The notes under the pieces: model-generated
Told to the model about the DNA's origin: nothing
The model's database searches: none
Seen by the model: the letters and a program-made list of their open reading frames with translations, nothing else
Source of the DNA: Candidatus Aenigmatarchaeota archaeon
GTDB taxonomy: Archaea; Aenigmatarchaeota; Aenigmatarchaeia; QMZS01
Direction of reading: 5' to 3'
Length of the DNA: 64,000 bases
Assembly (NCBI GenBank): GCA_016932615.1
Contig: JAFGCN010000007.1
Span: forward strand, 19,189-83,188
Shown here: positions 4,983-54,636 of the stretch, in pieces
Layout: each line of letters opens with the position of its first letter
How positions within the stretch are numbered: position 1 is the first letter of the stretch
Program-made: the position numbers and the translations under genes

Positions 4983-4998
4983 ATGCCCTTCAGTAATT

Positions 4999-5385: not shown

Positions 5386-5395
5386 CGGGTTAATT

Positions 5396-5611
5396 ATGGC
5401 AGCGGACAAAAAGAAGGAAAGGTGGGTTTATGTCTGCCCAAAATGCGGCAGCAAAGATATTGCCATAAGGTCATGGGACATTGCATTTAACGAAAAAATC
5501 TGCAGCCGCTGCGGCTACACTTCCCAGTTCTTCCCGCAGGTTCCCCTGAAAGCAAGGAAAAAGCAAGCGGGCGAAATCAAGAAGCGGCCCTCTCCAAAAG
5601 GCAAGTTATAG
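5396..5611 (+). CDS. small zinc-ribbon protein
   Basis: CPKCGS...CSRCGY two CxxC pairs, basic C-terminus. Confidence 0.4.
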   Translation: MAADKKKERWVYVCPKCGSKDIAIRSWDIAFNEKICSRCGYTSQFFPQVPLKARKKQAGEIKKRPSPKGKL

Positions 5612-5621
5612 AGATATTGTT

Positions 5622-6155: not shown

Positions 6156-6173
6156 AAATTTTTAATCCCAGTT

Positions 6174-7013: not shown

Positions 7014-7097
7014 AAAAGATATATAAATAACCTAATTATATTATAGAGCAGTTTTGGCTTTGACCAAATAACTGTAATTTTCCAAAGGTGACCAACC

Positions 7098-8960: not shown

Positions 8961-10352
8961 CTAAAACATATCGGGGTGCTCCGTGTGGATTGGAATCAGA
9001 TTTTCCGCATTTATTTCCCCGATTAATGCCCTTATTTCATCGCCTGATGCATGCCCTGAAGCGTGGGCAAATGCTTCTCTTATTGAGAAGTGCTCAAGCC
9101 AGTTTTTCTTTCTCTCCTCATCAAGCTCCATCTCCTCACAAAACGGCTCGCAGGAAGACTTTATCCATAGCGCGCCTTTTGGCTTGATGTCAACAAGCTG
9201 GCCTATCTCCCACATGTTCATGGAGACTGCAAACTTTTCCGGGCTTTTCTGGAGTTCCCTGTAGGTTATCGAGTTTTTAAGGCCAATGAATTGCCTCTCC
9301 CATTCGCTATAATCCTGGGCAACCTGTTCGCAGCCATATCCCTCCCTGCAGATAAGCCCCCAGCTTTTTGGGGGAATAAGAATTTTCACTTCATCAAGGG
9401 AAAATGGAGCTAAATTCCCCAGGCAGCTTATCAGGTAGGCAAGCTTCAGGTTTACTACAAACTCCCGCTTGTTCTGCTTTGCCGACTGGAAAATCGAATT
9501 AACCCTGTCAGTGTCCCTTATTGGGTGCTCTATGAAAACCATTCCCTTCGAGCCCGATATTTCTTCAGAAATCCTGCTTCTTACCTCACTTTCTGAGGTT
9601 GTGTCCTCTGAGTCAATCCTTGTGCCTTCGCATAAAAGCCACCTTGGCTTTGCTTCCTTTGCTTTTCTTACAAAATCCATGGTAAGGGCCCCATTCGAGC
9701 CGTGAAACCTGATATCTCCTGTGTAAACCAGGTTTCCCTCATCCGAGCGGACAATATATGCGCAGGCGCCCGGTAAGGAATGGTCAACAGGCACCATTTC
9801 CACTTCAAGGGAGCCAATCTTTACCGGGCTGTTTTCGCCCATTATGTTAAAAACTCTCTCCTTTACAAAATCCTGATTTCTCCTTGTAACTCTTGACAAT
9901 CCGCCTTTGGTATTCCTGTAAAAAGTAAACGCCTCGCAGGCAGTGGTGTAGTCAGAGAAAGATCCTATTCCTGTGTTTTCCATCGCCTCAAGGATAATTT
10001 TTGTGGGCTTTGTCGAGTAAATTAAAATGTCAGGGCGCAGGAAATGCAGGTACTGCGTGTGGTCAGTGTGCGCGTGAGTGAGAAAGACAGCGTCTATTGC
10101 CTTGTCTTCTTTAGGCAGGCCCATGTGGCGGATATAGTCCTCCCTGTAAACCCCTTTGAGGTTTGGGAGAAGGCCAAGCTCGAAAAAGTCCTTGAGGGCG
10201 GCGCATTTTCTTGGCTGGAGGAACTCGCAATAGAATTTTCCGGCCTGGGCAAAGCTCATGCCAAAGTCAAGGAAAATCCTTGTCCCCTTGTGCTCGACCA
10301 GAATCTTGTTTCCGCCAATTTCATTTTTCCCGCCTAAAACCGAGATTTCCAT
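8961..10352 (-). CDS. beta-CASP metallo-beta-lactamase ribonuclease (archaeal RNase J-like)
   Basis: 463 aa; GGKNEIGGNK near N-terminus (RNase J-like), FLTHAHTDHTQYL MBL motif; convergent with fttA. Confidence 0.6.
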   Translation of the reverse strand: MEISVLGGKNEIGGNKILVEHKGTRIFLDFGMSFAQAGKFYCEFLQPRKCAALKDFFELGLLPNLKGVYREDYIRHMGLPKEDKAIDAVFLTHAHTDHTQYLHFLRPDILIYSTKPTKIILEAMENTGIGSFSDYTTACEAFTFYRNTKGGLSRVTRRNQDFVKERVFNIMGENSPVKIGSLEVEMVPVDHSLPGACAYIVRSDEGNLVYTGDIRFHGSNGALTMDFVRKAKEAKPRWLLCEGTRIDSEDTTSESEVRSRISEEISGSKGMVFIEHPIRDTDRVNSIFQSAKQNKREFVVNLKLAYLISCLGNLAPFSLDEVKILIPPKSWGLICREGYGCEQVAQDYSEWERQFIGLKNSITYRELQKSPEKFAVSMNMWEIGQLVDIKPKGALWIKSSCEPFCEEMELDEERKKNWLEHFSIREAFAHASGHASGDEIRALIGEINAENLIPIHTEHPDMF

Positions 10353-10522
10353 AATTAGGTCTGTGGCTGCTTAAATCATAAGTTGATTAGTCACAAGGGC
10401 GGGGCTTTCCGAGCATAGTCCCGCTCCGCCGCCTTTTAAAGCATAATCCATCTGGACTGCCATGGTACCCGCTACTCACTGCATATGAAAAGTTGATTTT
10501 AGAATTTCTGAGCAGGGCATAA

Positions 10523-10855
10523 TTAGCCCTTTCTGGCGGAACTGCTCACCAAAAAGCCCTTTTTCGAAACAAGCTTTTCAGCTTTTTTGTTTGACTTTAT
10601 GATTGTAATAATCCTGATTTGTTCCGGGCCTGCTGCGGCAACGATTATGAGATGATATTTTCCGGACATCCTGTATATGAGCTTATATGCCCCGCTTTCT
10701 TCCTGATACTGGGCGTATAGAAACTCCCTGTTGATTAGGTAATCTGCAACCTCCTCTTTTGAAACCGGCCTTTGGGACTGGCGCTTCAGGAAATGCGCCG
10801 TAAAATGCAGGTCTTCAGGTAAAATATCCCTTTTGATGACCTCCCGGAAATACAT
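10523..10855 (-). CDS. DUF4258-like small protein (putative toxin-like)
   Basis: 110 aa; FTAHFLKRQSQRPVSKEEV...YKLIY...KYHLIIV pattern resembles DUF4258. Confidence 0.4.
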   Translation of the reverse strand: MYFREVIKRDILPEDLHFTAHFLKRQSQRPVSKEEVADYLINREFLYAQYQEESGAYKLIYRMSGKYHLIIVAAAGPEQIRIITIIKSNKKAEKLVSKKGFLVSSSARKG

Positions 10856-10878
10856 AAATATACGCCGCTAAATAGATT

Positions 10879-11187
10879 ATGGTTGATTTTGGGTATAGCA
10901 TCGAGGGCGACGTCCTTGAAGTCTTCAGGGAGGGCGAAAAAGTGGATTACAGTGTGGAGCTTTTCGAGGACTACTTTATCGACATCGGCTCAAACGGAAA
11001 AATCGTGGGCCTCGAGATAATTAACGCATCCTCCGCCCTTGGAGTTGACAAAAAAGACCTCCAGAAAATCAGGAAGGCGGAGCTTCACGCTTCAGACGCA
11101 AAAGGCGGGAAAAAAATCGTGTTTATCCTCAAAGTGGATAAAGCCGAGATAAAAAGCCAGATAATGTTGCCTGCCCTTACCGCCTAA
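10879..11187 (+). CDS. DUF2283 family small protein
   Basis: 102 aa; FGYSIEGDVLEV...DIGSNGKIVGLEIINAS pattern typical of DUF2283. Confidence 0.5.
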   Translation: MVDFGYSIEGDVLEVFREGEKVDYSVELFEDYFIDIGSNGKIVGLEIINASSALGVDKKDLQKIRKAELHASDAKGGKKIVFILKVDKAEIKSQIMLPALTA

Positions 11188-11208
11188 AGCCCGGATTTTT
11201 CTAAAAAA

Positions 11209-14118
11209 CTATTTCCCCAAACTCTCCTCGACAATCCTGATTTCGTCTTCGGTTAATCCGTAGAGCTTGTAGACGAGAGAGTCGATTTCTTTATCTGTGG
11301 TTTTGATTTCCTCCTCGATTTTCTTTCTCTCGTCAGTGATTTTCTCTCCCAATTCATTTAGCCGTTTGTTGAGGGAGAGCATCTTAGTCGCTAAAGACAC
11401 AAAATCATTATGGACTTTAAGATTGTCTTGGTTATTCAAGTCAATAGTAGGAAAACAGAAGGGATTTAAAAACTCAGGAGTTAATCTATAAGCATTACCT
11501 CTCAAAGCAGTACTTGTATTGGATATAAAAAACCAGAACAATTTTGAATTTAAAATAGCCAAATATAGCAAGGGGTTTTGTCCCTTTACTCTTTCGCTAA
11601 ACACTACGCTGTGGATAGCGGGGCCATGATAAAAATTTCCTTTTTCGTCGTAAGTTATCCTGTTGCTGATCAGCATATCGGGAACCATTATCTTTGGCTT
11701 ACTATATTCTGGCAAACTGCGTGCTGCCGAATACTTGTAGAAATTAGTCGCATCCGTCTCAATCTTCCTAATTCCTAACGCTTCGCTTAAACCATTCAGG
11801 TATCGATAGCCCATGGGATATTTTACTTTCATTTCTTGGGGGGTGAATAACTGCATCTTACTATTTGTCAAGTGATATGGGAACAATAATCTTTTTTTAC
11901 TTTCCAAGGTTGCATATCTACGCACATCTTCTCCATAAACAAAAGGTTTAAGCAAAGATTTTTCAATCTCTACATTTCTATTGAGTTGCTTTGAAAAAAC
12001 AGTCGAGGTATCTTTATTTTCTTTCACAAGGTCAAACAGAAATATGTCATCATTGCCTGTTGAAGAACCCTTGAATATCTTTTCGGTAATATCCAAAAAT
12101 GAATTTTTATGAGATTTTATTTTAGATATTATCTTTTGAGTATCATCACTGCCAAAATTCCATTTGTTTTCTTTCAACAACTCAACGCTCTTTCTTTCAA
12201 ATTCGATATTCTTCAAGTCAGTAAAGTCTTCCCCTAAAGAAAATTTCTTGTATAAAAAAGTATCATTTTTCTTCTTTGATAGGAATAGTAGGCATGTATA
12301 AGTGGCTGCATCTTCGAAAACTTGATTTGTAGTAAAATCTACAATTTTATGAAGAGACTTTGTCTCATAAATATATTTCCGGATATTTTCTCCCATTTCT
12401 CCTTGAAAGAATTTATGGGGTAAAATTAGCCCGACTAACCCCTCTTCCTTTACTAAACTGAGTGCCTTTTCAATAAACAGAATGTAGATGTCATAATTCT
12501 TCGTGGGAGATTTGTAGTTGTTATTGAAGTAATCAACATCTTTCTTGTCAAGAGTCTGGATTCTGATATATGGCGGGTTCCCAATCACAACGTCAAACCC
12601 GCCTTCCTTCATAACATCCTTGAACTGCTCGCTCCACTTGAACGCCTTGTCGCCTGCAACTTTCTCGTCGTCTATAAGGGAGTTTCCGTTCCTTATGTTT
12701 TTCTGCAAAGTGGGAAGGCGCTTTCCCTTCTCGGTGATTTTGAGAAGCAGGTTTAACTGGGCGATTTCAACGGCCTGCTTGTCAAGGTCCACCCCGAAAA
12801 TATTGTTTTCAAGGATTTTGACTTTCCGGGAATAGGTCGCCTCAAGCCCGTCTGACAGGTCAAGCTTCGACTGGGCTTTTGCGGCCTGTCTTTTGGAATA
12901 GCAGCCATGCAAAACGTCATACGCCTTAATCAGAAATGATCCGGAGCCGCAGGCCGGGTCAAGAACCCTTATTTTCTCTATATCAACGTTCTTGTCTTTA
13001 AGGAGTTCGCCCAGGGTATTTTTGACAATGTAATCAACAATGTAAGTCGGGGTGTAATAAATTCCCTGCTCCTTGCGTTTCGCCTTGCTCTCGGTTAAGT
13101 TAGCCCTTTTGGCGGTTTTCTTCAGGATGTGGCCAAGATACTGCTCGTAGATATTCCCCAAAATATCCGCCTCGATTGCGGCAAAGTCGTAGGAAACAGA
13201 GCGGTCTTTCGTGGAGTAAAGCCCCTCGATAACCTCCTTCCAGGCATCGTCATCGATTTCAAGCTGGTCGCAGAGGTGCCCCTCAAAAAACCTGCTGTCA
13301 TACTGGGCGTTATAATACCCAAACAGCTCCTTGACGCTCCGGTCAAGGCCTCCCCTGCCGCTGCTTTGCCATTCCCTAAGCCGGGAAATAAGTTCCTTTC
13401 CCTCAAGCCCCCTGTCTTCAGAGCTTCGGATAAATATCATCCGGTCAAGCAATCTTTGCACCGCCTCGTCAAGCTCCTCTTCGCTCACATTAAGCTTCTG
13501 GTTTTGCTTTGTGGCATTTTTCGACAAAAGCTCTCTGAAACGGGTAAAGTCAGAAAGAAGCTGCTTGTCAATCGATATTTTCTTGGTCTTCTTTCCCCAC
13601 CTCTCAGCTTCCTTGTCCAGAAGCCCTTTCTCAAAGCTTTCCTTTGAAAGCATCCACAGCCGGCCAAAATCCTCAAGGAAGCTTTCAGAGTAGAGCTCCA
13701 TGAACTGCGAATGAAGGGGGTTTACGATTTTGACCTCGGCATTTAATATCTTTATCTCCCGGAAATTCGTCAAAACTGCCCAGGTGCAGCCCTTGTGGTA
13801 AGCGTAATTCACCGCCTGCTGGATAAACTCGGGCTTGTTTATGTCCTCCTTAAAGGACTTTGCCTCAAGGAAAAACTTCGGCACGCCCTTAATGCGAAAT
13901 CCATAGTCCGGCCTTTTTTTAGCCACCTTTTCCTCACGAGTTACTTCCTCAAAATTACGAAGGTCCCAGCCCAGATACTCGAAAAGCGGCTCTATAAAGT
14001 TTGACTTCGTGTCCTGCTCCGTAAATCTGTTGACCTTTCCCTCATTTTTGGCGTCAAGGTATTTCTGAACAAGAAGCTTTACAAGGTTTTCGCTGCCGCT
14101 CTTGGTGATGCCTTCCAT
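11209..14118 (-). CDS. Type IIG restriction-modification enzyme (fused PD-ExK endonuclease / N6-adenine DNA methyltransferase / target recognition domain)
   Basis: 969 aa; N-terminal PDYGF...FLEAK (PD-ExK), methyltransferase motif I VLDPACGSGSFL and motif IV GNPPY; MmeI/Eco57I-like size. Confidence 0.7.
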   Translation of the reverse strand: MEGITKSGSENLVKLLVQKYLDAKNEGKVNRFTEQDTKSNFIEPLFEYLGWDLRNFEEVTREEKVAKKRPDYGFRIKGVPKFFLEAKSFKEDINKPEFIQQAVNYAYHKGCTWAVLTNFREIKILNAEVKIVNPLHSQFMELYSESFLEDFGRLWMLSKESFEKGLLDKEAERWGKKTKKISIDKQLLSDFTRFRELLSKNATKQNQKLNVSEEELDEAVQRLLDRMIFIRSSEDRGLEGKELISRLREWQSSGRGGLDRSVKELFGYYNAQYDSRFFEGHLCDQLEIDDDAWKEVIEGLYSTKDRSVSYDFAAIEADILGNIYEQYLGHILKKTAKRANLTESKAKRKEQGIYYTPTYIVDYIVKNTLGELLKDKNVDIEKIRVLDPACGSGSFLIKAYDVLHGCYSKRQAAKAQSKLDLSDGLEATYSRKVKILENNIFGVDLDKQAVEIAQLNLLLKITEKGKRLPTLQKNIRNGNSLIDDEKVAGDKAFKWSEQFKDVMKEGGFDVVIGNPPYIRIQTLDKKDVDYFNNNYKSPTKNYDIYILFIEKALSLVKEEGLVGLILPHKFFQGEMGENIRKYIYETKSLHKIVDFTTNQVFEDAATYTCLLFLSKKKNDTFLYKKFSLGEDFTDLKNIEFERKSVELLKENKWNFGSDDTQKIISKIKSHKNSFLDITEKIFKGSSTGNDDIFLFDLVKENKDTSTVFSKQLNRNVEIEKSLLKPFVYGEDVRRYATLESKKRLLFPYHLTNSKMQLFTPQEMKVKYPMGYRYLNGLSEALGIRKIETDATNFYKYSAARSLPEYSKPKIMVPDMLISNRITYDEKGNFYHGPAIHSVVFSERVKGQNPLLYLAILNSKLFWFFISNTSTALRGNAYRLTPEFLNPFCFPTIDLNNQDNLKVHNDFVSLATKMLSLNKRLNELGEKITDERKKIEEEIKTTDKEIDSLVYKLYGLTEDEIRIVEESLGK

Positions 14119-14195
14119 AATAGAACACCTGAACTAATATTTCCGATTGAAAGCGCAGGATATCCTGTTTCTATCTATTAAATAGGCTTTAAATT

Positions 14196-14513
14196 ATGGC
14201 AAAGGCGGCAATAAAAGAATCGGCAGAAGTCAGGAAAATGAAGTCCGTGATAGCAAGTTACAGAGAGATAATGAGGCGAAAGTACAAGGTAAAGGAAATT
14301 GGGCTTTTCGGCTCTTATGCCCGAGGGGAACAGAAAAAGACAAGCGACATAGACCTTCTTGTCAGGTTCAGGGAAAACGCGACACTCTTTGATTTTGTAA
14401 GCCTCGGCGACTTTCTTGAAGAAAAGCTGAAGAAAAAAGTGGACTTGGTCTCTGTTGGAGGCGTGAGAAAGGAGCTTGAGAAAAACATCCAAGAAGAGCT
14501 TATCCGCCTATGA
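14196..14513 (+). CDS. mntA: minimal nucleotidyltransferase (MNT) antitoxin
   Basis: LFGSYARGEQKKTSDIDLLV nucleotidyltransferase motif (GS...DxD). Confidence 0.8.
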   Translation: MAKAAIKESAEVRKMKSVIASYREIMRRKYKVKEIGLFGSYARGEQKKTSDIDLLVRFRENATLFDFVSLGDFLEEKLKKKVDLVSVGGVRKELEKNIQEELIRL

Positions 14514-14857
14514 AACGTAACCCTGGATTGTTCTTGAATGATATCGTTTCCGCAATAGAGAGCATTGAAGAGTTTATCGGGGAGTTAACTCTTGAGGAGC
14601 TTATGAAAGATGATAAAACTTCAAGCGCAGTCATAAGAAAATTTGAGATAATCGGGGAAGCTTCAAAGCACGTTCCTGAAAGCATAAAATCTAGGCACAA
14701 AGAAATTCCATGGAAAGCTATGTCCGGCATGAGAGACCGGCTAATACACGCATATTTTGGGATTGATTATAATCTTGTATGGAAAGCGGTAAAGATCGAG
14801 ATACCCAAGCTAAATCCTAAACTTAAAAAGGCTCTGGCAAAGATGGAAAAAGAGTGA
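14510..14857 (+). CDS. hepT: HEPN-domain (DUF86/HepT) toxin
   Basis: 115 aa; R-x4-HAY HEPN motif (RDRLIHAYFGIDY); 4-nt overlap with MNT gene. Confidence 0.8.
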   Translation: MKRNPGLFLNDIVSAIESIEEFIGELTLEELMKDDKTSSAVIRKFEIIGEASKHVPESIKSRHKEIPWKAMSGMRDRLIHAYFGIDYNLVWKAVKIEIPKLNPKLKKALAKMEKE

Positions 14858-14910: not shown

Positions 14911-15525
14911 ATGGATATACTTATGGCAAAGGGCCAGGTTGGCCTCCTTGAGCGGCTTGGAGTATGTGGATTTTGCGATGAAATAAAAAACCTCACTTAT
15001 CTGAAGACTGGAATTTACCAGCCAAAGGCAAGATATATGGCCGAGCTTAGCGCATACTACCTTATTGCATTTATGACCCCTTTCTTTCTTTTCCAATCGC
15101 AGTTCATGCTGGGGACAATCGTAAACTCGATGCTTGTAACCGGAGCCCTATACACAAAGGGAAAGGAGATGCTCCCGGTAATTTTCCTTCCAAGCATCGC
15201 CACTTTGGCGCAGGGCGTGCTTTTCGGCTCGCTTACAAAATACCTGCTCTTCATGCTTCCGTTTATCTGGATAGGAAACGCGCTCCTTGTTTACGGAATA
15301 AAGTCGCTTCACATCAAGAAAAAGCAAAGCTTCGTCACCAGCGCCGCAATGGCAGCAACAGTCAAGGCAGGTTTCCTTCTGGTTGCCTCATACACACTTT
15401 TCACCATAGGGGTCATTCCAGCCGCATTCCTTACCGCTTTTGGAATGATTCAGCTGGGAACTGCTCTAGCCGCAATAATGGTAATCTGGCCGATTCACTC
15501 CTGGCGGCTCAAAAGGCAAAAGTAG
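14911..15525 (+). CDS. integral membrane protein, hypothetical
   Basis: 204 aa, ~6 predicted hydrophobic helices. Confidence 0.35.
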   Translation: MDILMAKGQVGLLERLGVCGFCDEIKNLTYLKTGIYQPKARYMAELSAYYLIAFMTPFFLFQSQFMLGTIVNSMLVTGALYTKGKEMLPVIFLPSIATLAQGVLFGSLTKYLLFMLPFIWIGNALLVYGIKSLHIKKKQSFVTSAAMAATVKAGFLLVASYTLFTIGVIPAAFLTAFGMIQLGTALAAIMVIWPIHSWRLKRQK

Positions 15526-16875: not shown

Positions 16876-17541
16876 TTATTGCTTCTGTTCCTCAGCGTCC
16901 AATATAAACTGCGCCAGGTCCACTGCCGATTGTACTGCCTCCGGCAATTTCTCTTCAGGCAAAGGATTGTAAATCCCTTCTGGAACCTTATAATTTGAAT
17001 CTTCGAGCTTTTTTCGCTCTTCTTCACTAAAATCAGAAGGCCTTAGCTCAAAAAGCTCCTGAAAAGTCCTGACTTGCCCGGTAACAGGCTTGAGCTGATA
17101 AGTGCAAACCTTTTTTTCGCTGCCTTCTCCTGAATAAAATAATGGAACAACCTGCCATTTTAAATCATGAGTCTTGTTATATGCTTCAACAATTTGCTTG
17201 AGTTTTTCTATATCCCCTTCTGCAGAAACATCTACCCAGGGATACTTTCTGCCACGGTCTGAATGCCCTTCGCACGAAGCTTGCGTGGAATATCCTGACT
17301 TCCATAATGCTCCGACAAGAGGCATGATTCCCTCGTCAACCTCCATTCCAAGCCTATCCTTAACAGCATAGAGTTTGTCAGCCACTTCCTGCCCAAGAGT
17401 TCTATTAAGGTACTCATGCATTGAAACGCTATGCCGATATGCGCCATTTGAACCGCCAGAATATCCTTTTTCAAGATTCAACTGGAGGCCAGACCAATCA
17501 GGATGACTTGTTTCAGAAACAGGGCTTGCTTCTTTCGCCAT
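16876..17541 (-). CDS. hypothetical protein
   Basis: 221-aa ORF, acidic, no recognised motif. Confidence 0.3.
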   Translation of the reverse strand: MAKEASPVSETSHPDWSGLQLNLEKGYSGGSNGAYRHSVSMHEYLNRTLGQEVADKLYAVKDRLGMEVDEGIMPLVGALWKSGYSTQASCEGHSDRGRKYPWVDVSAEGDIEKLKQIVEAYNKTHDLKWQVVPLFYSGEGSEKKVCTYQLKPVTGQVRTFQELFELRPSDFSEEERKKLEDSNYKVPEGIYNPLPEEKLPEAVQSAVDLAQFILDAEEQKQ

Positions 17542-17557
17542 AACTTATAGGGAAACC

Positions 17558-19261
17558 TCAGAAATACCTTGGCTTCCTTTTGTGGTACTTGGTATGAAGA
17601 AGCTTTTCGGCTTTTTTGCTTAGCGGCTTTCCCAGGAAGTCCTTGTAAAGCGTCTGGATGTCCGGGTTGTGGCTTGAAATTCTTATGGAAAGCCCCTTAT
17701 CTTCCTTGTAAAGCGCCTCCATTCTCTTGAGCCGAATCTCATTTGTAGTGGGCCTCGGCTGACCACCGCCCCCGATGCATCCGCCAGGGCACGCCATGAC
17801 CTCGATAAAGTGATATTTCTTCCACTGCCCGCCGTCGAAAAACTTCCTGATGTTTCCTAAGGTGTGGACAATAGCAACCTTTATGCGCTCTCCGGCAATA
17901 GAAATTTCCGCTTCCCTGATTCCATCGAGCCCGCGAACAGAAGTAAAGTCCAGCTTATTCAGGGATTTTCCGGTAAGCTCCTCATAGGCAACCCTTAGCG
18001 CCGCCTCCATCACGCCGCCAGTGACTCCAAAAAGGGCGGCCCCTCCGCTTGAAGAGCCAAGCGGCGTGTCGTAATCCCCGTCAGGCAACTTTGAAAATTC
18101 TATTCCCTTGGACTTAATGACCCGACCAAGTTCCCGGGTAGTCAGAACAAGGTCAACATCCGGCGAGCCGGTTGTCCTCATTTCGGGCCTTGCCGCTTCA
18201 AGCTTCTTTGCAACGCACGGCATTATCGACGCCACGAAGATACCTTTAGCATCTTTTCCAAGAAGCTTTGCGTAGTAATTTTTGGCTACTGCCCCGAACA
18301 TCTGCTGTGGCGACTTGCATGATGAGATATGCTTAAACAGATGCGGGTAATTCTGCTCGGCAAAAACAATCCAGGAAGGGCAGCAGGAAGTAATAAGCGG
18401 CAGGTTTTTCTTCTTTTTGTACCTCTCCAGAAATTCATTTGCTTCCTCCATTATAGTAAGGTCTGCCGCAAAGTTCGTGTCAAACACCTTGTCAAAGCCA
18501 ATTTTTTTAAGGGCGGAGACCATCTTTCCCTTTACCAAAGTGCCTGGAGCCATGCCAAACATCTCGCCTAGCGACGCCCTGACCGCAGGCGCGGTCTGCA
18601 CTACATAAAACTTTTTCTTGTGCGAGATATCCAGTGCCATCTCATCTATCGTTCTTACAAGCTTTTCGCTCAGCGCCCTTTCCCGGAGAGCGGTTGTCGG
18701 GCAGTAGAGCGCGCATTGGCCGCAGAAAGTGCATGGCGATTCGAGCATCGGCGTATTGTAAGGGGTGGTTATGGATGAGCAGACGCTCCGGTTCACAACA
18801 TCAATGTTCTCTATTCCCTGAATCCTGGAGCAGACCTGGGCGCACCTTCCGCAAAGGACGCAAAGCCGGCCTTCCCGCTCCAGAGGAACCGCCCTCTTGC
18901 AGGAAGAAATGCTTGAAGAGCCAAACATTGTCTTTTCTATTCCAAGCTCCCGAAAGACCTTGGTAATCTCCACGTCATTGTCGCTATGCGCATTTCCGTG
19001 CAAAAGCTCCGCATTCAGCTTTCTTGCATCAGTCACCCGCTTCGTATGGGTCAGAACTTCCATCCCTTCCCTTACCGGAGTATTGCAAGACGTTACAAGC
19101 TTTCCGTCTGCTTCAACGATGCATATCCTGCACCGCCCTTCCGGCTTGAGGTCGGGATGGTAGCAAAGTGTAGGTATGCTTATGCCGATTCTTTTGGCAA
19201 CCTCGAGAATTGTCTCTCCATCTTTTGCAAACACCCTTTTTCCATCGATTTTTACCTGCAT
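17558..19261 (-). CDS. hydA: [FeFe]-hydrogenase catalytic subunit HydA
   Basis: N-terminal 2Fe-2S ferredoxin fold, two 4Fe-4S motifs (CVLCGRCAQVC, CTFCGQCALYCP), H-cluster motifs L1 TSCCPSW, L2 MPCVAKKLE, L3 EVMACPGGCIGGGGQP. Confidence 0.8.
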   Translation of the reverse strand: MQVKIDGKRVFAKDGETILEVAKRIGISIPTLCYHPDLKPEGRCRICIVEADGKLVTSCNTPVREGMEVLTHTKRVTDARKLNAELLHGNAHSDNDVEITKVFRELGIEKTMFGSSSISSCKRAVPLEREGRLCVLCGRCAQVCSRIQGIENIDVVNRSVCSSITTPYNTPMLESPCTFCGQCALYCPTTALRERALSEKLVRTIDEMALDISHKKKFYVVQTAPAVRASLGEMFGMAPGTLVKGKMVSALKKIGFDKVFDTNFAADLTIMEEANEFLERYKKKKNLPLITSCCPSWIVFAEQNYPHLFKHISSCKSPQQMFGAVAKNYYAKLLGKDAKGIFVASIMPCVAKKLEAARPEMRTTGSPDVDLVLTTRELGRVIKSKGIEFSKLPDGDYDTPLGSSSGGAALFGVTGGVMEAALRVAYEELTGKSLNKLDFTSVRGLDGIREAEISIAGERIKVAIVHTLGNIRKFFDGGQWKKYHFIEVMACPGGCIGGGGQPRPTTNEIRLKRMEALYKEDKGLSIRISSHNPDIQTLYKDFLGKPLSKKAEKLLHTKYHKRKPRYF

Positions 19262-20370
19262 ACTTCAAGGAATTCTTTTTTGAAATACCTGAGCGCGCAC
19301 TCAAGGTGGGTTGTCGAAAACCGCCCAAGCGTGCAGTAAGACGTGTCACGGATATCTGGCACAAGCGCCTGTATTATTTTAAGGTCAGACCTGCACGACT
19401 TCTTGTCGCGCATTTTCCTGAGCGCTTCAAGAACGCGGAAATTTCCCTCCCTGCACGGAGTGCAATAGCCGCAGGACTCATGGACAAAAAACTCGGCAAA
19501 TATCTTGGACACTTCCGGTATGCTCCGATTCTGACCCACCACGATAAGGGCTCTTGAGCCCATCATAGCGCCGGTTCCGGAAAAGCTTTTTTCATCAAAA
19601 GGCATCTTCCTGAAATTTTTGTATGGAAGGCACCCAGCCGACGCCCCAAAATAAACTGCCTTTGGCTCCTCTTTTGGCTTTCCCATTGCGATAATCTCAC
19701 CAAGGGGAGTTCCAAGCTTGGCCTCATAAACTCCCGGGGCCTGAAGGTCTCCTGAAAGGCACACAACGGTAAGCTCTGGGTTCCACGTTCCGTCAAGTAT
19801 CAGGGGAATAGTTGCCAGGGTTTCGACATTGTTGACGCAGGTAGGCCGACCATTCAGACCTGCCTGAACAGGATAAGGGGGCTTCCTTCTTACGATGGGG
19901 CGGTTTCCCTCCATGGATTCGAGAATTGCCGACTCCTCGCCGCAGAGGTACGCCCCGGCTCCAAGCACAACCGTAATCCTAAGCCCAATCTTCTTCAGCC
20001 GTGAAGAGGATTTTTTTATCTCGGCTTCAAGCTTTGGCCGAATGTAGGAATATTCCCCCCGGAGGTAAATCCACGCCCGCCGGATTCCCATTGCGTAGGC
20101 GGCAATCGCCATTCCCTCAATAAGAAGTGAAGGATTATTTTCCATTATGAACCTGTCCTTAAACGTTCCCGGCTCGCCCTCATCCGCATTGCATACAAGG
20201 TAGCGCTCGCCTTTTCCCATCGACTCCCACTTCTGTCCCGTAGGATAATTCGAGCCGCTTCTGCCGCGAAGCCCTGACTCCTTTACCAGCCCTATAACCT
20301 TTTTCGGGCTTCTCTTGAGCGCTTTTTCATAGCCCCTCCAGCAAGTGTTAGTTAGCAGTTGCATATTCAA
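19252..20370 (-). CDS. hydB: NuoF-like NADH-binding flavoprotein subunit (HydB)
   Basis: GSNYPTG...CNADEGEPGTFKDR FMN/NADH motifs; ESCGYCTPCREG 4Fe-4S motif. Confidence 0.75.
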   Translation of the reverse strand: MNMQLLTNTCWRGYEKALKRSPKKVIGLVKESGLRGRSGSNYPTGQKWESMGKGERYLVCNADEGEPGTFKDRFIMENNPSLLIEGMAIAAYAMGIRRAWIYLRGEYSYIRPKLEAEIKKSSSRLKKIGLRITVVLGAGAYLCGEESAILESMEGNRPIVRRKPPYPVQAGLNGRPTCVNNVETLATIPLILDGTWNPELTVVCLSGDLQAPGVYEAKLGTPLGEIIAMGKPKEEPKAVYFGASAGCLPYKNFRKMPFDEKSFSGTGAMMGSRALIVVGQNRSIPEVSKIFAEFFVHESCGYCTPCREGNFRVLEALRKMRDKKSCRSDLKIIQALVPDIRDTSYCTLGRFSTTHLECALRYFKKEFLEVCR

Positions 20371-20813
20371 TCAAGCCCGGCAAGAATCTGCCGTATTTTT
20401 TCCTCAGTAAGGTTCGTGTAAACCTTGCCGTCAACCATCATTGAGGGGGCCTTGTCGCACTGCCCAAGGCATGACGCCTTCTCAAGCGTGAATTTTCCGT
20501 CGGTTGTCGTATCTCCAAGCTTCACCCCCAGCTCTTTTTTAAGAAAGTCAAGAAGCGTGAAGGACTTATTCAGGTAGCAGGAAGGGCTCCCACAAACGCG
20601 TATAATATGCTGTCCGCACTTTTTTGTCGGAAGAAAAGCATAAAAGCTGGCAACCCCATAAAGCTTTGCTAAAGGCATTCCAAGGCCACGGCTTACCTTG
20701 TCAAGCTTTTCAAAAGAAACATATCCCTCCTGCCGGACAATCTCCTCAAGAACGGTTAAAAGCTCGATTTCGCCATTCCTGCAGGATTTGATGAGCAAAT
20801 CCAGTTTCCCCAT
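20367..20813 (-). CDS. hydC: NuoE-like thioredoxin-fold [2Fe-2S] subunit (HydC)
   Basis: CGSPSCY ... CLGQCDKAPSMMVDGKVY motif of NuoE/HndA. Confidence 0.75.
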   Translation of the reverse strand: MGKLDLLIKSCRNGEIELLTVLEEIVRQEGYVSFEKLDKVSRGLGMPLAKLYGVASFYAFLPTKKCGQHIIRVCGSPSCYLNKSFTLLDFLKKELGVKLGDTTTDGKFTLEKASCLGQCDKAPSMMVDGKVYTNLTEEKIRQILAGLD

Positions 20814-20877: not shown

Positions 20878-21710
20878 GTGGTCTATATTATGCTTCCTAT
20901 AACGCTTAGGCCCTGCCCCAAAAAGCATAGCTATGATCTGGACAAAGCAGAATTGCCTGAAGTTACTCTCAAAAGAGTCACTCATGCGCTGGAAACCCTG
21001 GACTCAGAAGTCAGCCTGGAAAATCTTGAAAGCAAGGAAAAACTTTGGGTGTACCGGGCAGTCTCAAAAAAATTTCTAGATATCGACCCGCCATACATCC
21101 GCTGCGGGAGGTCACACGGAAAAGGGGTGACGCAGGTACAAGCAAAATGCAGTGCCCCGATGTAGCAGGTCGAAAGAATAAATGCAAAAAACGTCATGCA
21201 GAACCTTGTAAGAGACCCGGAAACCTTGTTTGAGGCGTATGAAGGGCTCCCTAAAGAGTCGTCTATTCCAATCAGCCAACTGCTTTCCTATGGCTACCAC
21301 CCTTCATTTTACGCTCCCAATGCAGGGCAAGTCTTTAGGAAAAAGAAAATGATGTTCATGAAGGTCCACTGCCTGACAGACAAAACTGAAAAATACCTGC
21401 CGCTTTTCTGGCATCTCTATTTTTACGGAACAAATGGGTTTGCTTCCGGGAACACTTACGAAGAAGCGGTTCTTCGGGCGCTTTGCGAAGTTATCTAAAG
21501 ACATAATAAGATAGAAACCAGAAACAGGTACTTGGAAAGAAAGGAGATTTGGCTTGATTCCCACCAGGAGATTATCTCAGGTCTTCTCAGCAACCTGAAC
21601 GCCTGGGGGTTCAAGCCCATCCTTGAAGAGTGGAGCCGCCCGATACCAGTCCCCACTATCCAATGCAGACTCGGGTACAAGGCCGGATATGGCACATACC
21701 CCAAACCAAA
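20878..21710 (+). pseudogene. degraded YcaO-domain paralog (stop and frameshifts, C-terminus missing)
   Basis: Three ORF fragments (20878-21165, 21196-21498, 21532-~21710) align in order to the intact paralogs at 21966 and 25736. Fragment 1 stops at KCSAPM*, where the paralogs read KCSALMEWVER. Confidence 0.55.
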
Positions 21711-21715
21711 CTCCA

Positions 21716-21886
21716 TCAGATCTTCAAATTTATCTCCTTTAGCTTCTCACGCACAATCGGCGCGCACTCCTGGCATACCCAGCACTCATCCTTTCCAATC
21801 GAGGTCTTCTTTATTATCTGGAGCCGGCCGTTCTTTGTGGGCTTGAACCTTTGCCCGCAAAGTTCGCATTTATGAAGCTTTAGCAT
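21716..21886 (-). CDS. small zinc-ribbon protein (56 aa)
   Basis: MLKLHKCELCGQRF...ECWVCQEC; ATG 21884-21886, TGA 21716-21718; divergent from YcaO gene at 21966; below ORF-track size cut-off. Confidence 0.35.
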   Translation of the reverse strand: MLKLHKCELCGQRFKPTKNGRLQIIKKTSIGKDECWVCQECAPIVREKLKEINLKI

Positions 21887-21965: not shown

Positions 21966-23168
21966 TTGCATATATATTTTATGCAACAAATAATGCTGGA
22001 AGCTTGTCCCAAAAAATACACCTATGATCAAGACAAGGCAGAATTGCCCGAAAAAACATTGGAAAATGTACTAGGCATACTAAAAGACAGACATATAGAA
22101 GTAGAATTCAGGGAAGTCCAAAGCCTACTGGGAATCCCGTTTTACAAGTTGATGTCCACCGACCCCGAACGAAATTACTCCTCATATCTATTTTCAGGCA
22201 GCTCTTCTGGAAAAGGATCAACGCGCTTCCAGTCAAAATGCAGCGCCCTTATGGAGTGGGTCGAGCGAGTAAACGCAGGGCAAATCCCAACTAGACTACT
22301 CAACAGCGAAGAGATGGTCCATTGCAGCTATAATGAACTCTGTACAAACTCCAGAATCGCCCCGAAAGAAATGCTGTCCTACAGCTTCCACCCCTCATTT
22401 AAAAGCAATGCCTCAGAAGAGATACTGAGACATAAAAAAATGCACTACCTGAAGTTCCAGTGCCTTTCCGGACAAGAGGGGGCATACCTTCCAATATTCT
22501 GGCACCTGTATTTCAACTGCTCAAACGGACTTGCTGCAGGGAATACTTATGAGGAAGCAATCCTTCAAGCATTGTGTGAAGTCGTAGAGCGTAATAATGT
22601 CATTGAAACAAGGCTGAGAAATCTAAAATATCGAAGAGAAATAGTGCTAGATACCGATTATAAGCCCTTGAGAGATATGTCTGAGGTGCTTCACAAACAA
22701 GGAATAACCCCCATTATAGAGGACTGGAGTTGTCCGATACCAATACCTACAATGCACTGCCGATTTGGACCCAGAGCGGGCTATGGAACCAGCACTAGCC
22801 CCATAAAGTCTGCCATAAGAGCGATAACTGAAATGGTTCAGGACTATGCGATAAACGAAAAACACTGCCTTCCGCCGCAGGAAAATATAATCTATCCTCC
22901 GGCGGATAAAAAGATAGAGCTAAGCAAAATAAAAAGTCTGGAAAGGCAGGATATCCTTTCAGAGATAAAGGAAATCGTCAGCACCCTTAATTCCATGGGG
23001 TACCAGACCTATGTCAGGGACATCTCCCTACAGATACCTGTGCCTACGGTTCTGGTGGTTGTTCCTGGGCTTAAATGCTATGATTTCAGAAATCAAGAGA
23101 GGCATCTTCTGGATTTTAAGAGCAACCTTGTCCAGTATTATAACGATTACCTCATATACCTGCGCTAA
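21966..23168 (+). CDS. YcaO-domain protein
   Basis: 400 aa; SGKGSTRFQSKCSALMEWVER matches the YcaO ATP-binding signature (GKG..T...A..SAL.E..ER). Confidence 0.7.
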   Translation: MHIYFMQQIMLEACPKKYTYDQDKAELPEKTLENVLGILKDRHIEVEFREVQSLLGIPFYKLMSTDPERNYSSYLFSGSSSGKGSTRFQSKCSALMEWVERVNAGQIPTRLLNSEEMVHCSYNELCTNSRIAPKEMLSYSFHPSFKSNASEEILRHKKMHYLKFQCLSGQEGAYLPIFWHLYFNCSNGLAAGNTYEEAILQALCEVVERNNVIETRLRNLKYRREIVLDTDYKPLRDMSEVLHKQGITPIIEDWSCPIPIPTMHCRFGPRAGYGTSTSPIKSAIRAITEMVQDYAINEKHCLPPQENIIYPPADKKIELSKIKSLERQDILSEIKEIVSTLNSMGYQTYVRDISLQIPVPTVLVVVPGLKCYDFRNQERHLLDFKSNLVQYYNDYLIYLR

Positions 23169-25735: not shown

Positions 25736-26932
25736 ATGAAGCCAATCGTCCTGAAAAAATGCCTAAAGAAATATACCTACGACACCGACAAGGCAGAAAC
25801 GCCCAAAGACACTATCGGAAGAGTGACTCGGGTCCTAAAGGGGCAAGGACTAAATATCGTCTTCGAAAAGCTGGAAAACAGGGCAAATATTCCCGTCTAC
25901 CGCGTAGTTTCTGCCGATCCTTCCAAGGATTATTCTTCCCTAGTCTTTAGCGGAAAGGCGCACGGAAAAGGTGCGACTGAAAGCCAGGCGAAGTGCAGCG
26001 CTCTTATGGAGTGGGTGGAACGAGTAAATGCTGGAAACGCAATACGCCTGCTTGCAAAAGACAAGGAAACAATCTTCAGGGCTCATGAAACTATCCCTTC
26101 AGAATCCACTATAGATATCAAATATATGCTGTCTTACAGCCATAACCCTAGCTTTTATGGGAAAAGTGCAGAAAGGATTATCAAACGCAAAAAAATGCAT
26201 TTTATGAAAGCTTACTGCCTTACCGATAAACGGGAGAGATATCTACCATTTTTATGGCACCTGTACTTCAATGGGTCAAATGGGCTTGCCTCAGGAAACA
26301 CTTACGAGGAAGCTGTTCTTCAGGCGCTTTGTGAAGTTATCGAAAGACACAATATTGTGGAGATAAAGACATTAAATTCAAAAGTAAACGCTATCGAGCT
26401 AGGCTTTCCCTGCAAGCCCCTCGCAGAAATGCTTTCAAAAATCCAGGAAGTTACTGCAAGACCAATCATACAAAAGTGGAGCCGCCCGATACCAGTCCCC
26501 ACTGTCGCCTGCAGGCTACACGATAGCACTGGATACGGAACTGCTCCAAGCCCAGCAAAAGCAGCCATGAGAGCCATAACAGAAGCCATACAAGAAGATA
26601 CCGCTACGAGACGGTATGGACAAGATAGTGCCACAATCAAGATTGAGTCACAAGAGCCAATACCTCTCAGCAGTATGGAAAGCCTGGAGAGGGAAGATCT
26701 GTATGATGAGATTAATGAAATCTCAAGGATTCTTGAGTCCATGGGGCATATGATATATGTTATGGATTTCTCCTCAATCGTCCCCATACCCACTGTCGAG
26801 GTGATTGTGCCTGGACTCAGGTCTGTCGACTACACTGGAAGAGATCGCCACCTACGGGAATTTCAGTCTTGCCTTATTGAGTATTTTAACCTCGTAGCAA
26901 GCTTACCTCAGTGGAATATTTTAACCGCTTAG
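25736..26932 (+). CDS. YcaO-domain protein
   Basis: 398 aa; SGKAHGKGATESQAKCSALMEWVERVNAG signature; paralog of 21966-23168 (shared CxKKYTYDxDKAExP N-terminus). Confidence 0.7.
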   Translation: MKPIVLKKCLKKYTYDTDKAETPKDTIGRVTRVLKGQGLNIVFEKLENRANIPVYRVVSADPSKDYSSLVFSGKAHGKGATESQAKCSALMEWVERVNAGNAIRLLAKDKETIFRAHETIPSESTIDIKYMLSYSHNPSFYGKSAERIIKRKKMHFMKAYCLTDKRERYLPFLWHLYFNGSNGLASGNTYEEAVLQALCEVIERHNIVEIKTLNSKVNAIELGFPCKPLAEMLSKIQEVTARPIIQKWSRPIPVPTVACRLHDSTGYGTAPSPAKAAMRAITEAIQEDTATRRYGQDSATIKIESQEPIPLSSMESLEREDLYDEINEISRILESMGHMIYVMDFSSIVPIPTVEVIVPGLRSVDYTGRDRHLREFQSCLIEYFNLVASLPQWNILTA

Positions 26933-26992: not shown

Positions 26993-27183
26993 CGCTGGGG
27001 GCAAGATTTGAAATCGCGGAAAACCTCATAGCCAATTTAGCAGTAATATTCCTGCTTTGCAGGAATCTGCTTCTTTTGACGTTGAGGCATTATTCTTCCT
27101 CGGGAAGAATAAAGCTTCACTCGCGCCTCCTTGCGGAGACCAGCTTTCCAGGCTGGCGCCTTAGACCACTCGGCCACCCCAGC
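26993..27183 (-). tRNA. tRNA-Ser(GGA) with a ~107-nt intron between T-stem and T-loop (53/54)
   Basis: Minus-strand exon 1 (27183-27120): GCTGGGG-TG-GCC-GAGTGGTCTAA-GGC-G-CCAGC-CTGGAAA-GCTGG-long variable arm-GCGAG. Exon 2 (27012-26993): TTCAAAT-CTTGC-CCCCAGC-G. Acceptor arms pair perfectly; the T-stem GCGAG/CTTGC pairs with one G-U. Confidence 0.65.
27089..27112 (-). repeat. intron hairpin (TTTATTCTTCC-CGAG-GAAGAATAA) 6 nt after 5' splice site
   Basis: inverted repeat in tRNA-Ser intron, same pyrimidine-arm/purine-arm design as the other four intron hairpins. Confidence 0.55.

Positions 27184-53180: not shown

Positions 53181-54636
<1,456 letters not shown>

Follow-up and report, generated by a model that had tools for sequence, protein, structure and literature searches.

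A short-HydB [FeFe] hydrogenase operon in an Aenigmarchaeota archaeon probably encodes a non-bifurcating, NAD(H)-linked enzyme

The product of the hydC-hydB-hydA operon of an Aenigmarchaeota archaeon is probably a minimal heterotrimeric [FeFe] hydrogenase in which NAD(H) and H2 are coupled directly, with no electron bifurcation, in the manner of Hyd1ABC from Syntrophomonas wolfei. This reading is based on the sequence of a 64 kb stretch of DNA, hereafter the window, and on features published for characterised relatives. The operon consists of three translationally coupled genes, all on the minus strand, and their coordinates in the list of open reading frames are exactly those of the first-pass annotation. 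The first gene, hydC (20367..20813), encodes a NuoE-like thioredoxin-fold [2Fe-2S] subunit of 148 aa and is preceded by an AT-rich intergenic region of 64 nt. It is followed by hydB (19252..20370), encoding a minimal NuoF-like diaphorase that has one N3-type [4Fe-4S] cluster besides its FMN/NAD(H) site, and by hydA (17558..19261), encoding the catalytic subunit of 567 aa with a [2Fe-2S] cluster, two [4Fe-4S] clusters, the H-domain and a fused small-subunit domain. HydB comprises 372 aa if translated from a TTG codon and 370 aa if translation starts, as NCBI has it, with the ATG at position 20364, which lies 2 nt after the hydC stop; the overlap of hydB with hydA is 10 nt.

By gene organization, with hydA adjoining a NuoF-like hydB and a NuoE-like hydC (the HydDB/Greening definition), the operon belongs to group A3. 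Open reading frames, Pfam matches and motifs all confirm the annotated NuoE/NuoF/[FeFe] HydA operon and show its H-cluster site to be intact. Its presence in Aenigmarchaeota is not new, because trimeric group A3 enzymes have already been published from at least six DPANN phyla including this one (Huang 2021, PMC8421398; Greening 2024, PMC11216029), and the Aenigmarchaeota sequences were explicitly grouped with Woesearchaeota enzymes (Huang 2021, PMC8421398). The earlier remark that [FeFe] hydrogenases are rare in archaea is thus outdated for this type. Both studies annotate the DPANN clade as 'electron-bifurcating/confurcating group A3', and the accessible text of neither discusses the absence of domains from HydB or the loss of the His-ligated cluster described below.

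The catalytic subunit matches Fer2_4, a 2x[4Fe-4S] domain, Fe_hyd_lg_C (E 5e-96, 321.5 bits) and Fe_hyd_SSU (E 5e-23, 81.4 bits) in Pfam, and reaches 483.1 bits with TIGR02512 (FeFe_hydrog_A, group A), above the cutoff of 405.95. The best-scoring model is NCBIfam NF040763 ('NADH-dependent [FeFe] hydrogenase, group A6') with 732.3 bits, below its cutoff of 765. The H-cluster motifs L1 (TSCCPSW, aa 291-297), L2 (MPCVAKKLE, aa 347-355) and L3 (EVMACPGGCIGGGGQP, aa 487-502) agree with the consensus patterns TSCCPxW, MPCxxKxxE and ExMxCxxGCxxGGGQP, including the four ligating cysteines. Alignment to CpI and to the best solved relative, HydA1 of Thermoanaerobacter kivui (8a6t_A, 584 bits), shows that all four cysteines are conserved together with the MEEA-E, KSPQQ, MPCxxKK and EVMAC motif residues, so the loss of essential cysteines that would have spoken against the annotation is not seen.

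The N-terminal part of HydA contains ligands for one [2Fe-2S] cluster (C33/C44/C47/C59) and for two [4Fe-4S] clusters (C134-C144 and C177-C187). An M3-type (CpI-like) architecture consists of FS2, FS4C, FS4B, FS4A and the H-cluster, and HydA departs from it in that PF10588, the His-ligated [4Fe-4S] domain (Hx2-3Cx2Cx5C), is unmatched. At the aligned site HGNAHSDNDVEITK of HydA, with three cysteines replaced, stands opposite HNADCFECDKNLHC in T. kivui HydA1 and HEFKCGPCNRRENC in CpI. A linker at residues ~85-125 (18887..19009, minus strand) takes the place of the FS4C/A4 site, and the sole cysteine within residues 60-133 is C121. The same cluster is likewise lost in 28 of the 120 best HydA homologues. 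The three H-cluster motifs of the first-pass annotation therefore stand with the sequences it gave, but its 'ferredoxin-like clusters' have to be corrected to one [2Fe-2S] and two [4Fe-4S] clusters, with the expected His-ligated [4Fe-4S] cluster missing.

Published work provides several marks by which bifurcating enzymes can be told from non-bifurcating ones. The former carry A/E232, M234, F367 and GGPSG (Thermotoga maritima numbering), the latter T/S, K/S/A and Y at these positions and no GGPSG (Losey 2020, PMC7311640). The Bfu family is defined by clusters B2-B5, which are absent from non-bifurcating homologues including S. wolfei Hyd1ABC (Schut 2022, PMC9304861), and the B3/B4 domain occurs in all characterised bifurcating [FeFe] hydrogenases but not in non-bifurcating ones (Furlan 2022, PMC9499530). 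HydC matches 2Fe-2S_thioredx (E 3.3e-42, profile positions 5-144 of 145) and has the cysteines C74/C79/C115/C119 of cluster C1, which do not discriminate because non-bifurcating enzymes have C1 as well.

HydB matches Complex1_51K (E 3.5e-42), NADH_4Fe-4S (E 1.4e-20), a weak SLBB and no other Pfam domain, and has the N3 cysteines C298/C301/C304/C344. Its reading frame is already the longest possible, with no extension in either direction. It aligns to bifurcating HydB/NfnB chains in the core only, for example to the stretch 174-553 in the T. maritima HydB of 626 aa, and equally well to NuoF/Nqo1 proteins of 418-438 aa. The N-terminal [2Fe-2S] domain is lacking, residue ~12-15 of HydB being paired with residue 141-174 of the bifurcating chains. 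So is the C-terminal 2x[4Fe-4S] domain (B3/B4, IPR017896): Pfam finds no Fer4 domain, and the protein ends ...FLEVCR directly past the four-helix bundle, 4-5 residues beyond the point where its alignment to the NuoF core stops. Since the stop codon lies inside the start region of hydA, no C-terminal domain can exist. The Zn/B2-site ligands AHIxxKxCPxxxC follow the helix bundle in the four bifurcating-type solved chains with displayed alignments (7t2r_B, 7q4v_B, 9n5u_B and 9bov_B), and HydB terminates ahead of this motif.

The signatures of HydB read GEPG-T-F-K-DR, GAGA-Y, and FGASAG where bifurcating enzymes have GGPSG. In its nearest 119 homologues the T is found in 116, the K and the Y in all 119, and GGPSG in none. 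HydB thus lacks the Bfu-family domains, ligands and signature residues alike, the C1 cluster of HydC being the one family feature present, and it fits the description of an S. wolfei Hyd1ABC-type HydB (FMN plus one [4Fe-4S], T/S232, K/S/A234, Y367, no GGPSG), by criteria that were derived from few characterised bacterial enzymes and are here applied to an archaeal one. All 119 of these relatives have the short form, and those with a name come almost exclusively from DPANN archaea. Identity to HydB is 43-65% within this archaeal clade and at most 43% for bacterial NuoF; a GTDB scan for placement of the clade gave mostly generic NuoF matches. The FMN loop of the Aenigmarchaeota subclade is GRSGSNYPTG, off the consensus GRGGAGFPTG, with substitutions common to a subclade of homologues (16 of the 119 have S at position 38, and 15 have it at position 40). 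The cofactor ligands and the NuoF-type nucleotide and FMN motifs are invariant across the clade, and the invariance of the ligands argues that function has been maintained.

Gene content, cofactor ligands, signature residues and their conservation are thus shown directly; from them we infer how the subunits assemble, in which direction electrons flow, which of NAD and NADP is used, and the physiological role. NADH would give a hydride to the FMN of HydB, and electrons would pass singly from the N3-type [4Fe-4S] cluster to the N-terminal [2Fe-2S] cluster of HydA and through its two ferredoxin-type [4Fe-4S] clusters to the H-cluster, where protons would be reduced in a reversible reaction. HydC would supply an N1a-like [2Fe-2S] cluster beside the flavin. 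The direct wire consists of the H-cluster, A1, A2, A3, B2 and FMN, with the His-ligated A4 off the path at the HydA-HydA interface (Furlan 2022, PMC9499530). Exactly the clusters on this path, plus that of HydC, are kept in the window enzyme. All accessory cofactors by which bifurcating HydABC enzymes couple to ferredoxin or link protomers are absent, namely the N-terminal [2Fe-2S], Zn/B2 and two C-terminal [4Fe-4S] sites of HydB and the His-ligated [4Fe-4S] of HydA. The step from NADH to H2 is uphill at standard conditions, so H2 evolution would require a very low partial pressure of H2, next to a partner or host that consumes it; failing that, the enzyme would take up H2 instead. The purified non-bifurcating HydAB of Syntrophus aciditrophicus formed only 2.2-40.2 Pa H2 from NADH (PMC7311640). 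The same domain-based reasoning has been used to call bacterial 'sub-type II' enzymes non-bifurcating (PMC11406978).

The physiological partner of an active complex could be other than, or not only, NAD(H): NADP(H), or ferredoxin or flavodoxin docking on HydA, with HydB and HydC as an auxiliary or alternative entry. Nucleotide specificity is unreadable from sequence, ferredoxin is the partner of monomeric relatives such as CpI (PMC9499530), and the related Hnd of D. fructosovorans was first named NADP-reducing, a name that the source labels of homologues follow. We nevertheless regard this as unlikely, given that the NuoF-type nucleotide and FMN motifs are invariant in the clade.

A canonical group A3 HydABC that co-oxidises NADH and reduced ferredoxin to H2 is somewhat less probable still. 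It would agree with the gene order, since the hydC-hydB-hydA trimer operationally defines group A3, in which the DPANN clade was placed by Huang 2021 and Greening 2024, and with the bifurcating T. kivui HydA1 as best solved relative. This similarity of HydA is not decisive, however, because bifurcation resides in HydB and HydC (PMC9304861, PMC9499530), and with its missing domains and non-bifurcating residues HydB does not fit the Bfu family as defined by domains. Full-length HydB of the bifurcating type does exist in some DPANN: a Woesearchaeota locus (L090) encodes a 610-aa HydB with GDPGAFMNR, GAGAF, GGPSG and two CxxCxxCxxxC motifs, and its HydA keeps the His-ligated site, so that features of HydB and HydA co-vary within DPANN. 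A ferredoxin-interacting partner may also be encoded outside the 64 kb. Of the two options originally offered, NAD(P)-linked or bifurcating, the second is accordingly disfavoured.

About equally improbable is that the genes are conserved without giving a working hydrogenase in this organism, either as an apo-enzyme left unmatured for want of HydEFG or as a repurposed redox or sensor protein. When every open reading frame of at least 300 aa in the window was examined, by Pfam directly or by annotation in a matching locus, no radical-SAM or HydF-type GTPase domain was found, which bears out the earlier observation that hydE, hydF and hydG are not in the window. Maturases are also reported to be missing from most archaeal genomes (Greening 2024, PMC11216029). 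On the other hand, the same study reports that cultured Asgard archaea make H2 and that a heterologously produced DPANN enzyme was active, although those genomes have no maturases. The intact H-cluster cysteines with their surrounding motifs, and the invariant cofactor ligands of HydB, also speak for a functional enzyme.

The archaeal context holds: the 16S rRNA identified by Rfam is archaeal, genes for aCPSF1/FttA, ribosomal protein S19e and TYW2/TYW3 are present, and identical proteins in NCBI are labelled Candidatus Aenigmarchaeota (MAG). The first-pass annotation had also invoked archaeal tRNAs; Rfam finds one tRNA in the window, of 191 nt and carrying an insertion, and ARAGORN finds none. 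The three hyd genes have a GC content of 0.47-0.51 (window background 0.475 +/- 0.026) and a GC3 of 0.53-0.58 (background 0.52 +/- 0.06), and their codon-usage distance lies inside the background of 0.98 +/- 0.22. The lateral acquisition that had been proposed is unsupported as a recent event by this composition, by the conserved synteny and by the short form of the nearest 119 HydB; with its host-like composition and conserved synteny, the operon appears to be a long-time resident, for which an ancient bacterial origin is possible. A recent bacterial transfer or a binning or assembly chimera is hardly credible, for although HydA homologues of ~50% identity beyond the archaeal clade are bacterial (e.g. 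Atribacterota, and Firmicutes 'group A6') and several transfers of group A enzymes from bacteria to archaea have been inferred (Greening 2024, PMC11216029), the composition is that of the window, the cassette has archaeal genes to either side, the locus is reproduced in an independent Logan assembly, and the order FttA - 6TM - hydA-hydB-hydC is kept in independent assemblies of Aenigmarchaeota relatives.

Convergent with hydA lies a gene for a protein with six transmembrane helices (TM204; 14911..15525, plus strand), probably the 'hyd6TM' of Greening 2024. It has the six-helix fold of an ECF-transporter S-component but no sequence match in Pfam, NCBIfam or PDB, even with a 70-member profile, belongs to no known S-component family, and is accompanied by no ABC ATPase (EcfA) or EcfT gene in the window. 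Genes of this type recur next to [FeFe] hydrogenases in DPANN, and the neighbouring enzyme can have any of three architectures: a minimal HydABC, a full-length HydABC or an ultraminimal form of 281 aa. That TM204 is a solitary uptake protein scavenging a cofactor or precursor for the H-cluster domain is a long shot; if true, it would help to explain active [FeFe] hydrogenases in maturase-less, host-dependent archaea. More modestly, it could import riboflavin/FMN or tether the enzyme to the membrane. An orphan frame of 221 aa (ORF221; 16876..17541, minus strand) begins 16 nt past the hydA stop and is possibly co-transcribed with hydA. It has no Pfam or NCBIfam match, is not found beside the cassette in the related loci examined and has only two cysteines, so it is no Fe-S protein. 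Rather than a subunit of the hydrogenase, it is probably an insertion.

In current metabolic reconstructions of DPANN, the trimeric [FeFe] hydrogenases figure as bifurcating enzymes in which NADH and reduced ferredoxin are consumed together. Should the widespread form with a short HydB prove to be a plain NADH:H2 enzyme, H2 could be evolved only at pascal-level H2, and these small-genome archaea would be energetically tied to H2-consuming neighbours or hosts; alternatively, it would take up H2 and make NADH. The short form would also be the smallest natural wire from NADH to the H-cluster, with FMN, three [4Fe-4S] and two [2Fe-2S] clusters, and hence a useful engineering scaffold. The ECF-S-like fold gives a first testable handle on the 'uncharacterised' 6-TM gene, a gene that may bear on how hydrogenase is assembled independently of maturases.

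Among known systems, S. wolfei Hyd1ABC and S. aciditrophicus HydAB (Losey 2017, 2020) are non-bifurcating, ferredoxin-independent, NADH-dependent [FeFe] hydrogenases. Compared by published features, the window enzyme shares with them the NuoE-like/NuoF-like/HydA trimer, a HydB of ~400 aa or less with FMN and one [4Fe-4S], an NADH site with T/S and K, an FMN site with Y, and the lack of GGPSG. [quoted passage not shown] With bifurcating HydABC (T. maritima 7P5H, T. kivui 8A6T, Acetobacterium woodii 8A5E) it has homologous subunits, the core wire H-cluster-A1-A2-A3-B2-FMN and C1 in common, but not the HydB N-terminal [2Fe-2S], Zn/B2, B3/B4, the HydA A4 or the bifurcating signature residues. The DPANN 'group A3' of Huang 2021 and Greening 2024 is the same clade with the same gene organization and usually without maturases; bifurcation is predicted there, unlike in the present reading, and short and full-length HydB both occur in DPANN. 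Finally, relative to NuoE/NuoF/NuoG (Nqo2/Nqo1/Nqo3) of Complex I, HydB scores as highly against Aquifex NuoF and Thermus Nqo1 as against any HydB (~255 bits) and has the same T/K and Y residues, and the Complex I path FMN, N3, N1b, N4 corresponds to FMN, B2, A3, A2 of the hydrogenase. Unlike in Complex I, no quinone module is fed, and the NuoG-like subunit ends in the H-cluster domain.

Three minus-strand open reading frames were found at exactly 17558-20813, where the first-pass annotation had placed a three-gene hyd operon: hydC (20813..20367, 148 aa), hydB (20370..19252, 372 aa if translation begins at a TTG, or 370 aa from the ATG at 20364, which both NCBI and the Logan assembly take as the start) and hydA (19261..17558, 567 aa). 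Only 2 nt separate the hydC stop codon from the hydB ATG, and 10 nt are shared by hydB and hydA, the layout of a translationally coupled operon. An AT-rich stretch was observed upstream of hydC. The subunits are identified beyond doubt by their Pfam and NCBIfam matches: HydC belongs to the NuoE type of thioredoxin-like [2Fe-2S] proteins, HydB consists of a Nuo51 FMN-binding domain and a NuoF [4Fe-4S] domain (with a weak SLBB match below cutoff), and HydA carries, from the N-terminus, a [2Fe-2S] domain, a single ferredoxin domain with two [4Fe-4S] clusters, and the large H-cluster domain together with a fused small-subunit domain. The three H-cluster motifs reported earlier for HydA are present (TSCCPSW, 291-297; MPCVAKKLE, 347-355; EVMACPGGCIGGGGQP, 487-502), and in a residue-level alignment against the solved [FeFe] hydrogenases CpI and T. 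kivui HydA1 (8a6t_A) none of the four H-cluster cysteines is missing and the conserved motifs around them are intact. ORF221, an orphan 221-aa reading frame after hydA, was considered as a fourth hydrogenase subunit and rejected, as it has no family match, contains only 2 cysteines and is missing in all related loci.

The archaeal assignment of the contig was borne out by a full-length archaeal 16S gene at 53182-54636 (+) (Rfam), by the archaeal markers aCPSF1/FttA, ribosomal protein S19e, TYW2 and TYW3, and by NCBI records of identical HydA, HydB and neighbouring membrane protein sequences, which come from a 163-kb contig (locus-tag prefix JW727_) labelled 'MAG: Candidatus Aenigmarchaeota archaeon'. 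In an independent Logan assembly (run SRR13394437), 16 kb of the locus were recovered with unchanged gene order. Neither 23S nor 5S rRNA was detected anywhere in the window with Rfam and the 16S gene is solitary, with a methyltransferase gene beginning 109 nt downstream, so the rRNA genes are unlinked. A tRNA search of the window with ARAGORN gave no hits; one tRNA missed by this program, apparently a tRNA-Ser(GGA) whose variable arm is long, was observed at 26993-27183 (-) (Rfam, 37.9 bits), and a ~100-nt insertion in its 3' half looks like a non-canonical archaeal intron. The earlier remark that the window holds no hydE, hydF or hydG maturase genes also stands, since no ORF of at least 300 aa in the window contains a radical-SAM or HydF-like GTPase domain.

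[FeFe] hydrogenases had been described in the first-pass annotation as rare in archaea, a view since overtaken for enzymes of this type. Trimeric group A enzymes with nuoF-like and nuoE-like genes were reported from Woesearchaeota, monophyletic with sequences from Micrarchaeota, Aenigmarchaeota and Nanohaloarchaeota (Huang 2021, PMC8421398), and group A3 HydABC is known from at least six DPANN phyla (Greening 2024, PMC11216029); the operon in an Aenigmarchaeota genome is thus no discovery. In both studies the DPANN enzymes were labelled electron-bifurcating/confurcating, a label that does not fit the HydB predicted here. With moderate confidence we propose instead that the operon encodes a non-bifurcating, NADH-dependent trimeric [FeFe] hydrogenase, from an archaeal clade that the literature already lists with another functional label. 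A limited literature search found no paper linking DPANN with a non-bifurcating hydrogenase, which is no proof that the point has not been made.

The proposal draws on both HydB and HydA. In comparisons of the 370-aa HydB with solved structures, the alignable part of bifurcating chains is confined to their core, for instance 141-522 in a 602-aa NfnB and 174-553 in T. maritima HydB (626 aa), and the 418-438-aa Aquifex NuoF and Thermus Nqo1 are matched equally well. As the reading frame, in addition, cannot be extended, both the N-terminal [2Fe-2S] domain and the C-terminal 2x[4Fe-4S] domain are missing. All four bifurcating-type solved chains with displayed alignments continue after the four-helix bundle with the stretch AHIxxKxCPxxxC, and the window HydB terminates short of it, at ...FLEVCR. 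The His and Cys of this stretch are, we infer, residues of the Zn/'B2' site, which is located at the end of the four-helix bundle (Furlan 2022, PMC9499530); the source papers do not name the ligands. The residues proposed to discriminate the two types (Losey 2020, PMC7311640; T. maritima numbering) give the same picture. Position 232 is A or E in bifurcating and T or S in non-bifurcating enzymes, and T in the window (GEPG-T-F-K-DR); position 234 is M as against K, S or A, and K in the window; position 367 is F as against Y, and Y in the window (GAGA-Y); and the GGPSG of bifurcating enzymes at 427-431, not found in non-bifurcating ones, is replaced by FGASAG. Given the missing terminal Fe-S domains and the full set of non-bifurcating residues, the bifurcating option raised in the first-pass annotation is probably wrong. 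The electron-bifurcating Bfu family is defined by clusters B2-B5 of BfuB, the HydB counterpart, and these are missing in non-bifurcating homologues including S. wolfei Hyd1ABC (Schut 2022, PMC9304861). A like argument has been used for the bacterial 'sub-type II' enzymes of Hydrogenedentota (PMC11406978).

HydA is reduced as well. At the site of the His-ligated cluster (A4), T. kivui HydA1 has HNADCFECDKNLHC and CpI HEFKCGPCNRRENC, and the window HydA aligns there with HGNAHSDNDVEITK; only one cysteine occurs within its residues 60-133, and PF10588 gave no Pfam match. The site is also lost in 28 of the top 120 HydA homologues, including the entire Aenigmarchaeota clade of 63-70% identity. In a neighbour-joining tree of the H-domain, midpoint-rooted and without support values, 19 of 26 HydA sequences lacking the site cluster with the window, and the others form a clade of five and two singletons. 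In T. maritima, A1, A2, A3 and B2 join the H-cluster to FMN, and A4 is no part of that route but connects two protomers at the HydA-HydA interface (Furlan 2022, PMC9499530). The window enzyme thus retains just the HydC cluster and this direct connection between H-cluster and FMN, with no further clusters.

For the physiology of such an enzyme we infer the following steps. NADH would reduce the FMN of HydB, from which electrons would reach the H-cluster by way of the HydB [4Fe-4S] cluster, the HydA [2Fe-2S] cluster and then the pair of [4Fe-4S] clusters in HydA, in a path that would be reversible. Without a ferredoxin branch, NADH-driven H2 evolution would be expected only at very low H2; the purified non-bifurcating S. 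aciditrophicus HydAB yielded 2.2-40.2 Pa H2 (PMC7311640). Alternatively, the enzyme could run towards H2 uptake and NADH formation. If the NADH-only mechanism is true, the need for low H2 would fit a symbiont living beside an H2 consumer.

The hyd cassette also occurs in related Aenigmarchaeota assemblies. The gene order of comparison locus L094, ICMT-like - FttA - 6TM - (convergent) hydA-hydB-hydC, is kept in the window, broken by two blocks of added genes: in the first, an Eco57I-type restriction-modification gene of low GC lies with an MBL-fold gene and the toxin-antitoxin pair HepT/MNT; the second comprises an M20 peptidase and ORF221. Together with a GC, GC3 and codon-usage distance of all three hyd genes inside the range of 46 other window genes, this argues for a cassette long resident in the phylum and inherited vertically there. 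A bacterial source in the distant past is conceivable, bacterial 'A6' HydA being ~50% identical. Of the lateral acquisition considered possible in the first-pass annotation, a recent event is unsupported.

The first of these blocks, at 8961-14857 between FttA and the hyd-proximal 6-TM gene, is extra relative to L094 and resembles an inserted defence island. Besides HepT/MNT and the MBL-fold gene, which is of the MBL/RMMBL kind, it encodes the restriction-modification protein as an Eco57I/MmeI-type fusion of 969 aa, in a stretch of GC 0.39. Three YcaO-domain paralogues (20878-21846, 21966-23168, 25736-26932, +) are oriented divergently to the hyd operon, two of them intact (400 and 398 aa) and one split into several short ORFs and probably a pseudogene; their best NCBIfam match is the McrA-thioamidation YcaO, at 96 bits far under the cutoff of 365, and the host is a non-methanogen. 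The ~25 kb at 28012-52973 contain large ORFs of up to 1036 aa, mostly on the minus strand, with VWA, NosD/beta-helix, peptidase M64 or C25-fragment matches or no Pfam match, presumably secreted or surface proteins.

The 6-TM neighbour of the operon (TM204, 14911-15525, +) has no match in Pfam, NCBIfam or PDB sequences by sequence or profile search; its family comprises 584 cluster representatives at E <=1e-3 among 1.84 billion. Eight of ten genomic contexts examined place TM204 or a homologue next to [FeFe] hydrogenase genes. Members of the family adjoin minimal HydABC in the window, in loci L002, L006 and L094 and on the contig of homologue P0243, constitute the first gene of a full-length Woesearchaeota operon (L090), and are situated 0-6 nt directly upstream of 281-282-aa ultraminimal hydrogenases in loci L091 and L092. 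The two exceptions are located beside a Nitro_FeMo-Co-domain gene (L089) and SufC/SufBD (L093). It may be speculated that TM204 supplies something to the H-cluster domain. The proteins immediately downstream in L091 (8562-9407) and L092 (3087-3935) contain only Fe_hyd_lg_C, with degenerate H-cluster motifs (STVCPG, SPCNFKKTE, FCVGSCVGGP), and look like 'ultraminimal' DPANN hydrogenases.

Judged by its homologues, the short, non-bifurcating-type HydB is a feature of the whole clade. The best 119 in a 5.8-billion-protein collection are 346-406 aa long with three core domains only, and carry the names Aenigmarchaeota, Woesearchaeota, Altiarchaeales, Diapherotrites and Nanoarchaeota (one label is incomplete). 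In a MAFFT alignment the signature T is found in 116, and K and Y in all 119; GGPSG occurs in none of the 120 sequences that include the window's own entry (P0121), and the cysteines of N3, the single HydB [4Fe-4S] cluster, are invariant. A GTDB scan, keyed on generic NuoF peptides (EPGTFKD[KR]) and hence uninformative on how widely the short HydB is distributed among taxa, yielded among the matches listed at least one Aenigmarchaeota locus (L009) and at least 79 bacterial loci, the latter NuoF-like at 35-43% identity. One of these, L011 from a Melioribacteraceae MAG (4436-8051; hydC 172 aa, hydB 391 aa, hydA 639 aa), is a HydB encoded in a hyd operon and a bacterial counterpart of the short form: as in the window, it shows the T/K and Y signature and lacks the C-terminal Fe-S domain, but the accompanying HydA, unlike that of the window, keeps the His-ligated site. 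The Woesearchaeota operon L090 (MAG GCA_038873495.1, 8581-12618), met by chance, serves as an internal control. In contrast to the window, it encodes a full-length, 610-aa bifurcating-type HydB with GDPGAFMNR, GAGAF, GGPSG and two C-terminal CxxCxxCxxxC [4Fe-4S] motifs, and its HydA (577 aa) keeps the His-ligated cluster site. Canonical and minimal HydABC thus both occur in DPANN, and the features that discriminate them co-vary.
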